Part shown: positions 393 to 43,379 of the stretch, in pieces | Numbering within the stretch: position 1 is the first letter of the stretch | Layout: every line of letters begins with the position of its first letter | Notes under the pieces: generated by a model | What the model saw: the letters and a program-made list of their open reading frames with translations, nothing else | What the model was told of the DNA's origin: nothing | Database searches by the model: none | Source: an uncultured virus (IMG/VR IMGVR_UViG_3300008267_000028) | Lineage: Duplodnaviria; Heunggongvirae; Uroviricota; Caudoviricetes | Direction: 5' to 3' (one strand) | IMG/VR virus record: IMGVR_UViG_3300008267_000028 | DNA length: 55,231 bases | Position numbers and translations under genes: made by a program

Positions 393-1370
393 ATGGCACA
401 CGAGATCGAGATTCAGAACGGCAAGGCCAACGCCTTCTTCGTCGGGGAGCCTGCTTGGCACAAGCTGGGCAAGGTGTTCGCGGAGGGGACCGTGCTGGAC
501 ATCCCCACCGCCATCGAGGCGGCGGGCCTCAACTGGAACGTGCGGCTCCAGCCCCTCCACATGGTGTACGACGGCGAGAATCTGCCGGTGCCGGGCTACG
601 CCACCGTCCGCGACTCGGACAAGTCGGTGCTGGGCGTCGTCGGCCCCACCTACAAGCCCCTCCAGAACGCCGATGCGTTCAACTGGTTCCAGCCCTTCCT
701 CGACGCCAACGAGGCGACCCTTGAGGCGGCTGGCAGCCTGCGGGGCGGCAAGCGGGTCTGGGTGCTGGCCCGCCTCAACCGTGACCCCATCGAGGTTGTG
801 AAGGGCGATGAGGTCCGCAAGTACGTCCTGCTCTCCAACGGCCACGACGGCACGCTGGCGATCAGGGCGGGCTTCTCGGGTATCCGTGTGGTGTGTGCGA
901 ACACCCTCGCGGAGGCTCACGGCTCCTCGGCCTCGAAGCTCCTGCGGGTCCGTCACACGGCGAACGCCGTCCGCACCCTCGACGAGGTTCGGGAAGTGAT
1001 GAACCTCGCTGACCGTGAGTTCGCGGCCACCGCAGAACAGTACCGCTCGCTGGCCCGCAAGCAGGTCAACGCCTCCGACCTCAAGGCTTTCGTCCGCAAG
1101 GTCTTTGAGCCGAAGGTGCTGCTCACCGAGACGCCCGAGGAGGAGCGTAACCAGACGCTCATCAACAACATCATCCCGCTCTTTGAGAAGGGCCGTGGCA
1201 ACGACCTGCCTGGGGTCGCGGGTACCATGTGGGCCGCCTACAACGCCGTCAACGAGTACCTCGGGTACGAGCGTGGCCAGGAGGCCAACCGGCTGGACTC
1301 CATGTGGTTCGGTGACTCGGCCCGCCTCAACCAAAAGGCGTTCCAGACGGCTCTCCGCATGGCCGCCTAA
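393..1370 (+). CDS. DUF932/TIGR03299-type phage/plasmid protein
   Basis: MAHEIE, PAWHKLG, YKPLQN, NGHDGT, RVVCANT, WAAYNAVNEY motifs; GGAGG RBS. Confidence 0.85.
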   Translation: MAHEIEIQNGKANAFFVGEPAWHKLGKVFAEGTVLDIPTAIEAAGLNWNVRLQPLHMVYDGENLPVPGYATVRDSDKSVLGVVGPTYKPLQNADAFNWFQPFLDANEATLEAAGSLRGGKRVWVLARLNRDPIEVVKGDEVRKYVLLSNGHDGTLAIRAGFSGIRVVCANTLAEAHGSSASKLLRVRHTANAVRTLDEVREVMNLADREFAATAEQYRSLARKQVNASDLKAFVRKVFEPKVLLTETPEEERNQTLINNIIPLFEKGRGNDLPGVAGTMWAAYNAVNEYLGYERGQEANRLDSMWFGDSARLNQKAFQTALRMAA

Positions 1371-1475: not shown

Positions 1476-2297
1476 ATGCGCCTCAAAGTTGTCGAGAAGC
1501 CCGTCGTCGCCAAACTCATCGCCCGCTCAAGGCCCATCGGCCTCACAGAGGGCTTGCTCAAGGAAGGCGAACGCATCCTCTCCAACAACTCCATCGCGGG
1601 TGCCACCCTAGACGTGCCCATCGAGGGCACCTGTCGGCCCTCCAAGACCTGCACGAAGGACTGCTACGCGGCGTACTCTCGGCAGGCCATGCCCCGTATG
1701 CTGGCCCATCAGTACAGGGTTCAGCACTCGATGGAGGCCGATCCCGTGGCGTTCGCCCAACGGGTCATGGAGGAGTATGACAGGCTCGGCCTCACCTACC
1801 TGCGTTGGAACGGTGTGGGGGACCTCTCGGAAGCCGCCGTCCAGACTATCAACTGGATCGGGCAGAACCGCCCCGATGCCACGCTGTGGGTGGTGACTCG
1901 CAAGCCCGAACTCGCCGCCAAGGTACAGCACTTCCAGAACGTCTATGTCCACTTCTCGCTCGACTCATCGAGCCTCGACAGGCGTGAGAAGTTCTTGGCC
2001 CTCCAACCCCTGTCCCGCAACTACTTCTTCTCCTATCAATGCGAACGGGACGAGATTCCCCCTGCCAACGTACAGGCCAGCGTGGTGTTTCATCGCAAGT
2101 ACAAGCTGGTCGAAGGGTCGGACCCATCCAACCCCGCCCTCTGCCCCCTCAACCTGCTGACCGACTGCACGGGTGCCTGTGCGAACTGCCGCCGATGCTT
2201 CAACGGCAAGGCCGTCGAGATGAGCGACCTTCCCGCTGGGCTGTCCGTCCGCACCGCCTTCGACCTCGCTGACCTAGATCGACTTTTGCAGGAGTGA
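1476..2297 (+). CDS. GP88-like (radical-SAM-related, Cys-rich) protein
   Basis: TCx5Cx3CYA, RWNGVGD, C-terminal CxxCxxC. Confidence 0.65.
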   Translation: MRLKVVEKPVVAKLIARSRPIGLTEGLLKEGERILSNNSIAGATLDVPIEGTCRPSKTCTKDCYAAYSRQAMPRMLAHQYRVQHSMEADPVAFAQRVMEEYDRLGLTYLRWNGVGDLSEAAVQTINWIGQNRPDATLWVVTRKPELAAKVQHFQNVYVHFSLDSSSLDRREKFLALQPLSRNYFFSYQCERDEIPPANVQASVVFHRKYKLVEGSDPSNPALCPLNLLTDCTGACANCRRCFNGKAVEMSDLPAGLSVRTAFDLADLDRLLQE

Positions 2298-11832: not shown

Positions 11833-11925
11833 GCCGACAACAGGAAAGTCGGCAGCCTTTTGTGGTTGTGGCGACAGGAAAACCGCCGCTAAACTACCAC
11901 TAGGACATCAAAAGTAGAAAGACTA

Positions 11926-12073
11926 GCCGTTCCCTGTCTGGGGGTTGTTCTACCGACACGGACGCCGAGGGCAAACCTGGCGGTGCTGCCGCCCTCGACG
12001 ATAGGCCGTAAGGGCTACCGCCCCTCATCATGCTTACCCGGACAAGCATGGTCGGGGTCTAAGAACCGGGGAA
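11926..12073 (+). ncRNA. candidate structured ncRNA
   Basis: Nested pairings, three internal hairpins, plus-strand terminator with no plus-strand CDS upstream. Confidence 0.4.
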
Positions 12074-12112
12074 GGCCCGAGGGGTTGCCCACCCTCGGGC
12101 CTCTCGCTTTTT
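12073..12112 (+). terminator. intrinsic terminator (possibly bidirectional)
   Basis: AGGCCCGAGGG...CCCTCGGGCCT 11-bp stem then CTCGCTTTTT. Confidence 0.7.
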
Positions 12113-24365: not shown

Positions 24366-24395
24366 CCACTAGGCAGAGCGTTCGCGGACAATCAA
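24366..24395 (-). promoter_or_regulatory. class I promoter TTGATT-N18-TAGTGG
   Basis: Immediately after a terminator, facing clpX. Confidence 0.7.
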
Positions 24396-35505: not shown

Positions 35506-35922
35506 TTACGGCTCCTCCACGATCACCACATACACCGACTCCCGCCACAGCCGGATGAGTTCCTGCCCGATTTCTGGAGGCACCCCGACGGGTTCAAAAC
35601 AGGTAGGCATCTTGGGGGCTTTCGGGATGCAGTCGGCCTTACGGTAGAAAATGCACTTGCCCGACAACGCGCATTGGCGCGAGTCGGGCGACAGTCGGTG
35701 CAGGATGAGTTGTGGGGATGGCCCCAGAGCCTTTACGAGCGGACTCGTCCAGCCATGCAGCGCGTGATCGACCATCTCCTTGGTGGTGACCAGCAGGTAC
35801 TCGGCGTAGCGGCTGGTCCTCAGAGGCTCCCAAGCGGCTTCCCAGACGCCAGCCTTGCTGCGAACCAGCATGAGGTGGAGGTCGCCCATCTCACGGGTCT
35901 GGAGTTTGATCTGTCGAGCCAT
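35506..35922 (-). CDS. hypothetical Cys-cluster protein
   Basis: TGATG coupling; C-x4-C-x6-C-x8-C. Confidence 0.7.
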   Translation of the reverse strand: MARQIKLQTREMGDLHLMLVRSKAGVWEAAWEPLRTSRYAEYLLVTTKEMVDHALHGWTSPLVKALGPSPQLILHRLSPDSRQCALSGKCIFYRKADCIPKAPKMPTCFEPVGVPPEIGQELIRLWRESVYVVIVEEP

Positions 35923-36851
35923 CAGTCTTGCTCGTCGTCGTCGCCGTAGCCCTCCTCAACGACGGGAGCGGGTCCAACTCGACCCTGCTGACGGTCAGCC
36001 AGCACCATCCCGAAGTTGTTGACCCCCTGCGGGATCACGAGGCCCGCCTTGCGGCGCAGCACGTTGGTACGAAAGGGGCGGTAGTCCACATGGTGGTGCC
36101 ACCGTCGGAACTTCCAGACCACCTCCGCAACGTCGGGGTGCATGGCGGCGAGCATCCTGCTCTTGTTGAGCGTACCCTCGATCTCGTAGAACTCTCGGGT
36201 GTTGCCGCCCGTCATCCGCTGGGTCGCCACCTTCCCACACAGGAAGGCGTTGAACTGCACGGTCACCCACTTGTCCTTCAAAACCCGCAGGGACAGGTCG
36301 GTGTCCTCGTTGTAGCGCCCCCGCCAACGGTACTGGATGTCGTTGCGGATCAGTAGGCACGAGTAGATACGGGTGTTCAGCACATAGGGGGGCAGAGCAT
36401 CGACGGCCTTGGCGAACCCTTGGTAGTTGAAGCCCGCGACCGCGACATTCTCGTACCGTTCCACAAAGTCCTCGGCGGCTCGAAAGACGCTGCCCGTCTC
36501 ACAGACGATGCGGGTGTTGCGGTTCATCCTGTAGAAATGCTCGAAGTTGTCGTCCATCACCCAATGCCACGCGGCCCCCTCCGAGATCGCATGATCCCAA
36601 GCGAAGTTGCGTGCGGGGCCTGGCCCCTTGCTCTTGGTGGTCCCAAGATCATCGAAGGCGTCGTACTCCTCGATGTACCGTGGGGGTAGGATGAGTAGCT
36701 TGTCGGCTCCGACCTCGGCGGCGTACAGGTCGAACTCGGGTTCCTCGACGATGATGCGGTACGGGGTCCGCATCCGATCCAGCGCCTTGCTGGTCAGCCG
36801 CGACTCCCATCGGCCCTTCGACACCACATAGATGGGGTGGCTAGGATTCAT
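35922..36851 (-). CDS. GREB1/TET-associated-type glycosyltransferase (putative DNA modifier)
   Basis: PIYVVSKGR, HWVMDDN, YSCLLI, GRYNEDTDLSLR, GGNT. Confidence 0.8.
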   Translation of the reverse strand: MNPSHPIYVVSKGRWESRLTSKALDRMRTPYRIIVEEPEFDLYAAEVGADKLLILPPRYIEEYDAFDDLGTTKSKGPGPARNFAWDHAISEGAAWHWVMDDNFEHFYRMNRNTRIVCETGSVFRAAEDFVERYENVAVAGFNYQGFAKAVDALPPYVLNTRIYSCLLIRNDIQYRWRGRYNEDTDLSLRVLKDKWVTVQFNAFLCGKVATQRMTGGNTREFYEIEGTLNKSRMLAAMHPDVAEVVWKFRRWHHHVDYRPFRTNVLRRKAGLVIPQGVNNFGMVLADRQQGRVGPAPVVEEGYGDDDEQD

Positions 36852-37152
36852 CGACGTACCGCTTGTCGGTGCCAGGCCCACCCCAATGAGACTTGTAGGG
36901 ATGCCAGATGCTCTTGGTCTTGGCGTTCAACTTCTGGCCGATGCGGGCCGCGAAGTCGTCGAGGTCCTCCTGCGAGTTGAAGCGGACCACGATGGTCGCA
37001 TAGGCCACCTGCTTGTCCTGCACGAACTCGGGCATATTCTGCCACTCACGCCGCCACACAGGCTCGCCCTCGGGGTCACCAAGGCCCGTGGCCTCCAAAA
37101 ACGAGTCAATGTCGTCGCCGTCGTCATCTTCCCAACGCCTGTCCTGACTCAT
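36841..37152 (-). CDS. small acidic protein adjacent to the glycosyltransferase
   Basis: WQNMPEF...VRFNSQEDLDDFA..IGQ...TKSIWHP. Confidence 0.7.
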   Translation of the reverse strand: MSQDRRWEDDDGDDIDSFLEATGLGDPEGEPVWRREWQNMPEFVQDKQVAYATIVVRFNSQEDLDDFAARIGQKLNAKTKSIWHPYKSHWGGPGTDKRYVDES

Positions 37153-40139: not shown

Positions 40140-41891
40140 TCATTCATCGGAGGAATCCTTGCCCTGTAGGCGTCGGATGAGGTCCTTGGTACCTGACCCC
40201 TCACGCTCGAAGTCGAGAGCGCCCACCGCCGCCTCGCCCAGCACTCGGTCGATGAGGTTCTTCTTGGACTGCAAGAGAGCCAGAACGTGATGGTCAATCG
40301 TCTTGCGGTCCTTCTTCTTCTCGCGGGGCCGCTCTGCGATGAGGTGGTAGCAGACGATGTGCTGATGGGGGCTGCCAATACGGATAGGCCGCCCGAGAAG
40401 CTGGACGTAGTTACCCCATGACCACGGGGCATCGTAGAAGATCATCGCGGACGCAGCCTGTAGGTTGATGGCCTCGCTGCCAGCGTCCGTGATGAAGATG
40501 ACCTTGACATCCGACTCAAGGTTCTGAAAGACCTCCTGATGGCGGCGACGAGTCTTGTCGTCCTCCCGCCCCGTGATCCGCACGCTCTTGATGCTGGCCT
40601 CTGCGAGGATGTGCTGGAGGCGCGTCACAACCTTCTCAAACCGCGTATAGACGATCACCTTGTCGTTCTCTAGTTCGTCCGTGATGAGGTCGAGGAGCGC
40701 CTGCTCCTTGGCCCCCAACTTGTCGATCTTGAGTAACTCGTCCCTGTAGATGCCCGTCTCGATCTCGGACTCGGCCTCGAACTTGAGGATCGACAGGGAA
40801 TCCACAACCTGCTGGCAGTAGATGAGGGACACGAACGCCTTGTGTTCCTCGTAGTCCTTCACGGTCCCGTCGCCCATCTCAAAGACGCCCGACAGCGCCT
40901 CACCGTACTTGGAGTCCTCGGCGGGGCTGAGTTCGCAGGTGATCTCCTTGGTGATGAGGGTCGGCAGTTCGTCCGAGACGACGTGCTTGGGACGCCCGAG
41001 GAAGAACGGGTCGATCTTGTCACGGAAGTGCTGGAGGTTCCGATACCCGACGACGAGCGGTACCTGTCGGCCCCCTGCCACACGGGTCAGCCGCGTCACG
41101 CAGTAGTCGTTCATGAACGCCGTCTTGGTGGTGAACAGGTCGGGTACGAGCGCCTTGTAGATGGAGAACCCCTCCATGAGGTTGTTCTTGAGCAGCGTGG
41201 CGGTCAGCCCGTAGGCCCGATGGGCCAGCCCCGAGAGTTGGGCGCAGACCTGCCAGGTCTTGGTCGAGTTGGTCTTGAAGGCCGTCGCCTCGTCAAAGAC
41301 CACCACGACGTTCTGGGTGTTCTGCACGATGCCGTGGACCATGCCCGGCTTGACGGGAGACTTCGGGTCCTTGGGGTCGGCGCGACCAGCCCCCTCCGTC
41401 CAATCCTTCACCAGCAGGTGATAGTTGACGAGCAGGACGGCCTTCTCGTCCGTGTTGGTGGGGTGCTTGGCCCACGCCTCATAGACCTTGCGGCGCTCTT
41501 TGGGGGTCGAGGTAGTCACCACGAACGTCTTGACGTTGTGGGCAAACCTGTGAATCTCCCCCTCCCATTGACGCAGGGCTGACTTCGGGGTGACGACGAT
41601 GACCTTGTTGGCCGGTTCCTTGGGCCACAGGTAGCAGAGGGTGCCGATCACCTGAGCCGTTTTCCCCAGGCCAGTTCCGTCACCCAGCACCATCCGCTTC
41701 ATCATCAGAAGGTGGTAGATGCCCTGCGACTGATAGTACCGCAGCCGCAACGGTTGGGGCTTGCCGTCCAGCCCCTTGATCTCCGTGCGGAGCATTGGAG
41801 TCGGCTTGAGCGCCACCGTCTTGGAAGCCCGTATCTTCTTGAGGTTGTCGTAAGCGGCTTGGATTTCTGGGGCGAGCGGTTTGTCTGCCAT
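40140..41891 (-). CDS. SNF2-family helicase/ATPase
   Basis: LGDGTGLGKT, DEAT, LTATL..N, AGSEAINLQ, QLLGRPIRIG; start at MADK. Confidence 0.9.
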   Translation of the reverse strand: MADKPLAPEIQAAYDNLKKIRASKTVALKPTPMLRTEIKGLDGKPQPLRLRYYQSQGIYHLLMMKRMVLGDGTGLGKTAQVIGTLCYLWPKEPANKVIVVTPKSALRQWEGEIHRFAHNVKTFVVTTSTPKERRKVYEAWAKHPTNTDEKAVLLVNYHLLVKDWTEGAGRADPKDPKSPVKPGMVHGIVQNTQNVVVVFDEATAFKTNSTKTWQVCAQLSGLAHRAYGLTATLLKNNLMEGFSIYKALVPDLFTTKTAFMNDYCVTRLTRVAGGRQVPLVVGYRNLQHFRDKIDPFFLGRPKHVVSDELPTLITKEITCELSPAEDSKYGEALSGVFEMGDGTVKDYEEHKAFVSLIYCQQVVDSLSILKFEAESEIETGIYRDELLKIDKLGAKEQALLDLITDELENDKVIVYTRFEKVVTRLQHILAEASIKSVRITGREDDKTRRRHQEVFQNLESDVKVIFITDAGSEAINLQAASAMIFYDAPWSWGNYVQLLGRPIRIGSPHQHIVCYHLIAERPREKKKDRKTIDHHVLALLQSKKNLIDRVLGEAAVGALDFEREGSGTKDLIRRLQGKDSSDE

Positions 41892-41898
41892 GCCCCCT

Positions 41899-41908
41899 CT
41901 CTTACACC
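41899..41908 (-). promoter_or_regulatory. class II promoter GGTGTAAGAG
   Basis: 7 nt before ATG; heads the replication operon. Confidence 0.7.
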
Positions 41909-41944
41909 AACCCGAGAAGCCACCGGGGCTTTTTTTGGTGGCGG

Positions 41945-41974
41945 TTGATTTCCGCTGGGGTCGCTTCCTAGTGG
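41945..41974 (+). promoter_or_regulatory. class I promoter TTGATT-N18-TAGTGG
   Basis: Same motif and spacing. Confidence 0.75.
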
Positions 41975-42002
41975 GTACAGAACGCCAACCACGGAGACTC
42001 AA

Positions 42003-42164
42003 ATGACCATCGACCCGACCGACTTTGGCAGCATCGAGGACAGCGCGGAGTTCGCAGAGTTCGAGCGTGACGAGGAGGCTCTCGCCCAACTGATCGCAGA
42101 GGGCTTCATCGGACGCCCCGTGGTCGCCCAGACCCCCGTGGTCGAGGACGACATCAACTTCTAA
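42003..42164 (+). CDS. 53-aa acidic microprotein ending EDDINF
   Basis: Own promoter, GGAG RBS, GC3 bias; not in ORF track. Confidence 0.75.
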   Translation: MTIDPTDFGSIEDSAEFAEFERDEEALAQLIAEGFIGRPVVAQTPVVEDDINF

Positions 42165-42185
42165 AAAAACGAGGCCCACGGCCTC
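42163..42185 (-). terminator. intrinsic terminator
   Basis: GAGGC-CGTGG-GCCTC then GTTTTTTT on minus strand. Confidence 0.6.
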
Positions 42186-42214
42186 ATACGGACGAGCCGG
42201 TGTAGCAGCCGGAT

Positions 42215-42440
42215 AGTCGGGTGGCCCCCGATGAAGCGAAGCGGGGTTGCTCCCCGTAAAAAAGCCGCAACGCCTACGCAAAGCAGGCCGGTGCTGGACG
42301 GCACCGCATGGATGGAGTGGTGGAGGGCGCAAGCCCGATGAAGCCCCCCGACCAACCGTCCCTACCCATACACCCACAGCCCACCAAAGCATCGGCCCGC
42401 CGCTTCCTGCCATGTGGTCAGGGAGGGCGGGCCGACGTCT
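42215..42440 (+). ncRNA. candidate K-turn-containing structured ncRNA
   Basis: Class II-like GGTGTAGCAG at 42199-42208; closing stem; K-turn with GCAA loop; long 3' hairpin. Confidence 0.5.
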
Positions 42441-42452
42441 TTCGAGCGAACG

Positions 42453-43379
42453 CTAGGCAACCGCCTCGCTGTCCACGGTGCGACCGTGACAAACGAAGGG
42501 CGTGGCTAGGTCCCACTTACCAGCGGCGATCAGCTTGCTAAGGGCATCCTGCCGGTACACGCACTTCTGGACGAGCGGGTTGCTGTTCGCGGCCAACCAA
42601 GCCCGACGAACCGCGATGTACTCCTTGACCCACTCCTTTTCGTCACCCCCAGCGGCGGGGGTCGGTTCCTTGACGGCAGCCTTGTGGGTCGCCACACGGC
42701 CAGGGCCCGAATGGATGCAGGTGTCGTAGATGGTCAACAGCCCCAACGCCGACGTGAGGCCAAAGGACTCCGCGTGCTTGACGGCGGGCGAGAAGTACAC
42801 CTCGTCGAACACCTCGTCCTGCGCCCGCTGCATGAACGCATCCTTGCCCGCCTTCTTGAGCAGCGCGATCAGATCGTTCAACCACGCCGGATAGGGACCG
42901 CCTGGCGTCACCTTGGTGGACTCATTGGAGGCGATCTGGGGGAGGTACTTCTGGAGGTCGCCCGCCAACGGGCCGCCCAGAGCGATGTACCGCTTCACCA
43001 CGAGGTCCAGCGACCCCGCCTTGTCGGTACACTGGTGCTTGCCATACGAGATGCCAGCCCCATCCTTCAAGATCGTACACGTTGCGTAACTCTCGGGGGT
43101 CGGGACCTTACCCGTCTCGAAGATGGCGAGAACCGCATCAATCGCCTTCTTCTGCGCCGCCGTGTAGGCCAGCTTGCCCGACTTGGCCGCAGGAGCCGCC
43201 TTCGCAGGGGCCGCCCCCTGCTTCAACGACGCCTCATAGGCTAGGCTCTGCTTCTCGGTACCAGCACCGTGGATGCCGTCGGCCTTACCGACGTTGAATC
43301 CATGCTCGTTCAAGAACTCCTGCCACGCCTTGACGGCCTCGCCCTTGTCGCCTTGCTTGGTTCTGATTGGTGTCGTCAC
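42453..43379 (-). CDS. endolysin: PG-binding domain + GH46/lysozyme-like domain
   Basis: GDKGEAVKAWQ..L...ADGIHG..T; FETG...DGAGISYG..Q, YDTCIHSG. Confidence 0.8.
   Translation of the reverse strand: MTTPIRTKQGDKGEAVKAWQEFLNEHGFNVGKADGIHGAGTEKQSLAYEASLKQGAAPAKAAPAAKSGKLAYTAAQKKAIDAVLAIFETGKVPTPESYATCTILKDGAGISYGKHQCTDKAGSLDLVVKRYIALGGPLAGDLQKYLPQIASNESTKVTPGGPYPAWLNDLIALLKKAGKDAFMQRAQDEVFDEVYFSPAVKHAESFGLTSALGLLTIYDTCIHSGPGRVATHKAAVKEPTPAAGGDEKEWVKEYIAVRRAWLAANSNPLVQKCVYRQDALSKLIAAGKWDLATPFVCHGRTVDSEAVA

Follow-up and report, generated by a model that had tools for sequence, protein, structure and literature searches.

Flaviviral xrRNAs are three-way junctions closed by P1, with a ring around the 5΄ end, HDV-like ribozymes share a nested double pseudoknot (P1-P1.1-P2-P3-P4), and SAM-I riboswitches carry an AUC-AAGA signature for SAM binding in P1/J1-2. 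Folds that combine several pseudoknots with invariant junctions are typical of aptamers, and K-turns are bound by L7Ae-type proteins. Known small ribozymes need less than ~170 nt with a 3΄ pseudoknot, and the minimal HDV-like ribozyme is about one third of that size. Among the RNAs of phages, GOLLD and ROOL are described in PMC12286853 as ornate molecules near tRNA islands, and the account in PMC9697503 gives the function of rnaC and rnaD of phage T4 (species 1 and 2 RNAs) as unknown. Theta ribozymes trim phage tRNAs, and their tRNA-associated members have been defined by a distance of ±5 nt (PMC10879173). Flaviviral xrRNAs were reported to block bacterial RNase J1 in vitro (PMC5760640), so that an exonuclease block of this kind is possible in principle.

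We analyzed a DNA stretch of 55,231 nt from an uncultured virus (hereafter, the window). Comparison across homologous copies gives good support to the interpretation that positions 42192-42361 of the plus strand (~170 nt) encode a folded, phage-borne non-coding RNA with three pseudoknots, located between phage genes. The RNA lies between a 53-aa plus-strand micro-gene and the end of a minus-strand gene for a GH46 lysin, upstream of a gene for an SNF2 helicase. Viral contigs that carry relatives of this helicase reach 529 kb, so that the window phage is a jumbo phage. The initial annotation, made from the letters of the window, had placed a structured RNA at 42199-42440; this extent is replaced here by the comparative boundaries. 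The structure was segmented by hand, in the order 4-nt lead, P1, UA, P2, GA..GAA junction, P3, A-rich linker, P4, P5 and P6 arm, and the features of the region are as follows.

41945-41972, plus strand: putative promoter of the micro-gene (TTGATT ... CCTAGT), read as such from one of six spaced-motif matches.
42003-42164, plus strand: acidic 53-aa micro-gene ending in EDDINF, counter to the flanking genes and with its own promoter-like site.
42165-42187, minus strand: terminator-like hairpin and T run, for the lysin transcript.
42192-42195, plus strand: conserved, single-stranded 5΄ lead (N-C-G-N), which sets the 5΄ boundary.
42196-42213, plus strand: P1 hairpin (78 of 80 cells paired, with changes on both sides); the loop at 42204-42208 enters the PK1 kiss.
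42214-42232, plus strand: invariant UA and P2 hairpin (96/96 cells paired); the loop at 42223-42225 forms PK2.
42233-42240, plus strand: GA...GAA junction, partly fixed by the search patterns.
42241-42257, plus strand: P3 hairpin (64/64 cells paired); the loop at 42247-42251 kisses loop 1 (PK1).
42258-42266, plus strand: A-rich linker together with GCC, which supplies the 3΄ strand of PK2 (47/48 cells paired).
42272-42288, plus strand: P4 hairpin (63/64 cells paired), diverged in the window; most members are of the ACCCC-GGA-GGGGU type.
42289-42306, plus strand: P5 hairpin, of which 42296-42301 pairs with the 3΄ end (PK3).
42309-42354, plus strand: P6 arm, with a K-turn and GCAA tetraloop at 42319-42345.
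42356-42361, plus strand: 3΄ strand of PK3 and 3΄ boundary of the conserved RNA.
42392-42435, no strand assigned: long hairpin separating the RNA from the lysin stop codon (approximately –40 kcal/mol on both strands).

The resemblance to SAM-I riboswitches had been noted first, on account of a 27-nt hairpin at 42319-42345. This hairpin is exact and occurs once in the window, lies near the P2 consensus of SAM-I (RF00162) and, like P2, contains a K-turn, with C-stem, 3-nt bulge, tandem G-A/A-G pairs and NC stem all present. However, the match to RF00162 (42303-42418) reached only 17.4 bits (E 0.61) against a gathering score of 44.4, the P1/J1-2 signature was found in 0 of 16 copies, and Rfam searches with the other family members gave no SAM match. 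The earlier statement that the SAM-I core is absent is therefore upheld, and derivation from SAM-I was rejected on the score and the missing SAM-binding core. Moreover, the tip of the arm is of GNRA type and not the pseudoknot loop of SAM-I, and no sulfur or methionine gene lies downstream; the next gene is the convergent lysin gene in the window, in agreement with the earlier view that no credible plus-strand coding sequence follows, and unrelated genes elsewhere. A ligand-sensing element that controls a neighbouring gene, whether derived from SAM-I or a new riboswitch, would account for the weak match and for the aptamer-like pseudoknots and invariant junctions, but the K-turn arm is dispensable and there is no consistent downstream gene, a convergent gene being next in 4 of 15 copies; we regard this explanation as very improbable.

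We assembled 16 copies, carried by several unrelated phages and by mobile elements, 15 initially and the last by means of a covariance model made from these 15. Carriers detected by BLAST include four cultured phages of Rhodobacteraceae (RpAliso, DSS3_MAL1, MD18 and RcXuper), in all of which the locus is without RNA annotation. Pattern scans of viral contigs yielded new copies in 2 of 23, 0 of 38, 2 of 33 and 5 of 30 rows (the last with three known copies in addition); of two patterns applied to genome contigs, the first returned 0 rows and the second one member in 20 rows, on a 10.5-kb contig of a bin. No member was present among the 120 matches listed in a metagenome scan. Rows were retained or discarded by eye, according to whether helices outside the search pattern formed. 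The set is small, and the seeding patterns fixed some letters. Plasmids queried by BLAST with three members yielded no homolog, and neither did phages queried with the copies of the window, L066, L252, L294 and L313. The 15 cores have a mean identity of 65%, with the window at 51-68% to the others. The covariance model gave the 15 copies 54.6-116.9 bits, and no other among 99 sources scored above 14.5 bits; a second copy within one record (L328, 69.5 bits) was found by this model alone, and a profile made without the window copy detected the window at E 2.6e-8. The model found no match in 151 genomes of one Rhodobacteraceae-centred family, in a search that scored only 24 candidates per listed genome, had no positive control and hence carries no weight. 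No RNA library was among the sequencing runs listed as containing the sequence; in four DNA runs, short identical pieces cover the RNA, with no variants within it. A short look-alike from an AT-rich phage (L102) was excluded from the family at 14.5 bits; it resembles the P2 region (at 1182-1260, plus strand), here closed into a small junction RNA that lies between a promoter-like site, which we take to be of the Bacteroidetes type, and a Cys-rich gene.

Common to the copies are five hairpins, a loop-loop kiss and two more pseudoknots, usually accompanied by the K-turn arm. For the kiss between L1 and L3 (PK1), 71 of 80 cells are paired in 16 copies, in a single register across 11 letter sets, and the observed pairing was reached by 0 of 100000 partner permutations (15 copies). 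The first pair of PK2 is G-C in nine copies, U-A in four and C-G in two. For PK3, the score was 5.57 with the own partner versus 3.53 with crossed partners (0 of 100000 permutations), in hand-placed windows of 15 of the 16 copies, L313 being omitted as no clear partner was seen and L299 having three pairs. At the base of P5, 31 of 32 cells are paired (16 copies). The lead has C in 16/16 and CG in 15/16 copies, and the similarity of MAL1 and MD18 begins there. In a MAFFT alignment of 15 copies, not fitted to a model, 90.5% of 475 cells pair and both partners vary in 19 of the 32 pairs, a result matched by none of 500 shuffles; slid controls dropped to 37-48%, although these controls ignore kinship and four of the 15 copies come from related roseophages. 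L328, which lay outside the sample, forms five of five kiss pairs with a new letter set, three of three PK2 pairs and seven PK3 pairs, and has the K-turn. The search patterns contained UAGU, GAAG, the P4 hairpin and the loop of P2, and thus these parts appear more conserved than they are; none of the patterns included P1, the kiss, the lead or PK3.

The helices contain 31 G-U pairs versus 4 C-A, which fixes the plus strand. Folding energy alone cannot assign the strand because both strands fold well: the plus strand at 42199-42440 gave z = –2.75 (0 of 200 shuffles as good) and the minus strand at 42165-42452 z = –3.32. This equality, together with an open frame on the minus strand (42413-41892) that covers the RNA and a patchy distribution suggestive of mobility, is what could be said for a DNA-level element, a missed reading frame or chance folding of a GC-rich spacer. 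Such a non-RNA origin is extremely unlikely in view of the compensatory changes in three pseudoknots, the G-U bias to one strand, the K-turn and GNRA-type loops, the insertions of any length in loops, and the fit of the out-of-sample copy and of the window itself to models made without them. At the level of sequence comparison, the fold, the plus strand, both boundaries and gain and loss as a unit are established.

The defining core, i.e. the kissing loops and two further pseudoknots, is absent from the initial annotation. That reading had centred on the K-turn, which is peripheral, since its signature was detected by script in 12 of 16 copies, including the window, and the P6 arm is shrunk to a short hairpin in L295. 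In the other three copies without a script match, L066 was missed through a 1-nt insertion, L270 is atypical and L313 unclear. The arm is capped by either a GNRA-type loop or a variable insertion. Two further pairings had been annotated. GTCGGG (42216) had been paired over a long distance with CCCGAC (42347); this segment pairs locally in P2 in 16/16 copies, and only 2 of 15 have an exact complement at long range. CGGTGC and GCACCG are exactly at 42289 and 42301, as annotated. CCCGATGAAGC does occur twice, at 42227 and 42334, but the doubling is confined to the window copy (1/16) and the two structural roles differ. The long 3΄ hairpin folds strongly on either strand, but lies outside the conserved RNA; it has no counterpart by eye in the homologous sequences and is probably a terminator or end structure. 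In L294, GGCTGGAGG is present twice in the P6 arm (~1605-1665, plus strand), which may represent tandem K-turns. The SAM-I-like wording of the K-turn also recurs in L003 (~1501-1532, minus strand) within an apparent group I intron, which shows that the K-turn is a shared module in repeated use.

A promoter immediately before the RNA, as formerly proposed, was not recovered: a sigma-70 scan gave 0 sites in 41700-42700, and 42158-42187 matches the recurrent promoter-like motif at 6 of 12 positions, a level reached by 1986 of 2000 random stretches. The putative promoter at 41945 instead probably drives the RNA as well as the micro-gene. The earlier designation of a free-standing non-coding RNA is retained as regards a structured, plus-strand, covariation-supported RNA distinct from SAM-I, and not supported as regards a promoter of its own. 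The micro-gene is an upstream neighbour and no conserved partner of the RNA; it matched no Pfam family, and among viral contigs its own record alone. The promoter-like motif TTGAT-N17-19-CCTAG, inferred from intergenic repeats, occurs in the window at 264, 19605 and 41945 (plus) and at 24395, 23018 and 19594 (minus), five of the six sites falling in intergenic gaps. A second motif, GTGTAAGA, precedes a G-rich ribosome-binding site at 2311 (plus) and at 41907, 31541 and 24304 (minus).

The position of the RNA relative to genes was compared among 15 copies. It starts within ~6 nt of a stop codon in seven copies, overlaps one in two, and lies 30-45 nt behind one in three, including the window; the remaining three follow a tRNA or non-coding sequence. 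The genes upstream bear no relation to one another (DUF932, DUF2786, a Hint domain, unknown genes and tRNA-Ser). The RNA is not the leader of a fixed gene, because downstream genes can be convergent (4/15) and sigma-70-like hexamers, identified by eye, lie behind the RNA in L278, L295 and L308. It is present in four of six related roseophages; at the RNA site of MD18, and behind the same upstream gene, the two relatives without it (DSS3P8 and V10) have a plain bidirectional terminator hairpin. The RNA was found in 0 of 6 CbK-like phages of Caulobacter and Brevundimonas. Among 44 helicase- or lysin-related records, the covariance model detected the window's own alone, the other 43 being mostly fragments; of eight related records with a completeness of 90% or more, none yielded the RNA (with only 85 candidates scored for the largest), and no copy lay near the helicase or lysin of relatives. 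To judge from this distribution, the RNA behaves like an accessory gene that is patchy among close relatives.

The terminator hairpins of DSS3P8 and V10 raise the question of whether the RNA is a 3΄-end element acting in cis, which terminates or stabilizes the upstream transcript by means of a pseudoknot and U run or as an exonuclease barrier, with no role as a free RNA. Consistent with this, the RNA occupies the entire gap between convergent genes in MAL1 and MD18, and a T run of at least four follows PK3 in 5 of 15 copies. On the other hand, a 35-nt hairpin suffices in the relatives, three conserved pseudoknots with invariant junction letters surpass the need, the RNA is flanked in the window by terminator-like hairpins that are separate from it, and such an element would be odd between two tRNAs or where a pair of diverged copies shares a region of RNA genes, so that we consider a purely cis-acting element quite unlikely. 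Two other readings were rejected, a readthrough signal because its spacing to the stop codon is not fixed, and a tmRNA-like tag frame because indels break the frame.

Three of the 16 copies are in tRNA or tmRNA regions. In L294, the RNA fills the gap between tRNA-Ser (ending at 1481) and tRNA-Val (starting at 1683), spaced like the tRNAs, and its lead begins 1 nt after tRNA-Ser. L313 and L328 are two diverged copies in one record, within a 19.5-kb region containing a tmRNA and eight tRNAs, and the L328 RNA ends ~3 nt before tRNA-Ser. A called tRNA directly abuts the RNA in 2 of 16 copies. Like GOLLD and ROOL as described in PMC12286853, the RNA is phage-borne and has kissing loops and several pseudoknots, and it may resemble them in its occasional location among tRNAs; unlike them, it has ~170 nt instead of many hundreds, has no Rfam match and mostly lies behind stop codons. 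The T4 RNAs rnaC and rnaD, small stable phage RNAs from a tRNA cluster according to PMC9697503, are contextual analogues. Although the opening hairpin of rnaD superficially resembles P1 of L295, homology was rejected, as the T4 region scored at best 5.8 bits with filters off versus 54-117 for members; in contrast to the present RNA, rnaD ends in CCA and rnaC has a T-arm-like hairpin.

Theta ribozymes are also pseudoknotted phage RNAs whose 5΄ end can abut the 3΄ end of a tRNA, and the L294 lead is inside the ±5 nt of their definition (PMC10879173). A self-cleaving ribozyme of a new class, which would cut at or near the 5΄ lead to free itself or to trim the upstream mRNA or tRNA, would fit a compact core that combines several pseudoknots with invariant unpaired letters, as well as the invariance of the lead C in 16/16 copies even though it was in no search pattern, and the unrelated neighbours. 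We nevertheless consider it unlikely: the RNA has no likeness to any ribozyme family of Rfam, its ~170 nt and conserved 3΄ pseudoknot exceed the needs of small ribozymes, a called tRNA lies directly upstream in only 1 of 16 copies, and the distance to the stop codon ranges from overlap to ~45 nt. The theta class in particular differs in fold, with five hairpins and three pseudoknots covarying here in place of the nested double pseudoknot, and in size, the family RNA being about three times as long as the minimal HDV-like ribozyme. The xrRNAs offer another comparison, being pseudoknotted, located in a 3΄ untranslated region and provided with conserved single-stranded letters at the 5΄ side as described in PMC5760640; here, unlike in xrRNAs, P1 is a hairpin in all copies that closes no three-way junction, there is no sequence likeness, and the carriers are DNA phages of bacteria. 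By analogy, we tentatively suggest that the RNA may make its own 5΄ end, either as a new self-cleaving ribozyme or as a knot that halts host RNase J at the lead, a putative bacterial-virus counterpart of the xrRNAs; we consider this less likely than not. If it is true, a phage could place a promoterless stable RNA behind any gene.

The reading that we prefer, to which we give an even chance, is that of a stable, trans-acting phage RNA of ~170 nt that has no promoter of its own and is cut from a longer transcript. The RNA would be transcribed as the tail of an upstream unit, which in the window would be the micro-gene transcribed from the promoter at 41945. Host nucleases may free it by trimming the upstream mRNA or, beside tRNAs, the cuts of tRNA processing may do so, and the 3΄ end would be set by a U run or by the next tRNA. 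Both ends appear to be tucked into the fold, and we propose that the RNA would accumulate as a stable species for this reason. This reading is favoured by the covariation, the unrelated upstream neighbours, the placement of L294 and L328 beside tRNAs, the T run behind PK3 and the presence in some but not all of the related roseophages. Most speculatively, it might act in trans, its shape serving to bind a host protein or complex or to mimic its target as a decoy; given the company of tRNAs and tmRNA, translation or RNA decay would be the most plausible side. The target is a guess, because no partner gene is conserved. An L7Ae-type protein might dock on the K-turn arm where this optional arm is present. 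Three observations run against the stable trans-acting RNA: only 2 of 16 copies directly adjoin a called tRNA, the upstream reading frame that extends into P1 in MAL1 and MD18 fits poorly with a clean release, and the nine of 15 starts near or overlapping a stop codon would also fit a cis or catalytic role.

With respect to Rfam, the RNA is uncatalogued, as no member reaches the gathering score of any family, while its three-pseudoknot fold is well supported by the alignments; in the window, the gathering score is reached by a tRNA-Leu alone. A literature search, mostly of open-access papers, found no description of the RNA, and the MD18 genome paper (PMC7643831) uses neither the word noncoding nor ncRNA. 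Six member motifs were not found in those supplementary files of the Fremin 2023 catalogue (10,006 viral candidate RNAs) that were searched; the catalogue could hold part of the family. New ribozymes, riboswitches and RNA machines usually start out as intricate uncatalogued folds, and this RNA is small enough for synthesis and comes with a covariation-supported model of three pseudoknots. Since four cultured phages carry the RNA and two close relatives are without it, a natural with/without comparison is available, so that the long-open question of what stable non-tRNA phage RNAs do becomes directly testable.

Several other observations were made in the same records. A gene for a TET-associated glycosyltransferase (PF20691) at 35922-36881 of the window (minus strand) suggests DNA base modification in the phage, and a 278-nt intergenic gap at 11833-12110, in which several segments are GC-rich and hairpin-like, may contain a further structured RNA. 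In L295, a second folded non-coding stretch (~1670-1595, minus strand), for which neither a tRNA nor an Rfam call was obtained, lies directly upstream of the RNA and behind a TTGACG hexamer. Directly 3΄ of the RNA in L312 (minus strand) is a tRNA-like piece with a T-arm-like hairpin and a CCA end, not called by ARAGORN or Rfam. Finally, in L313 (312-2300) and L347 (2870-5000), a 622-nt tmRNA match is followed by ~1.5 kb without an ORF of 120 aa, which is probably a string of uncatalogued RNAs.
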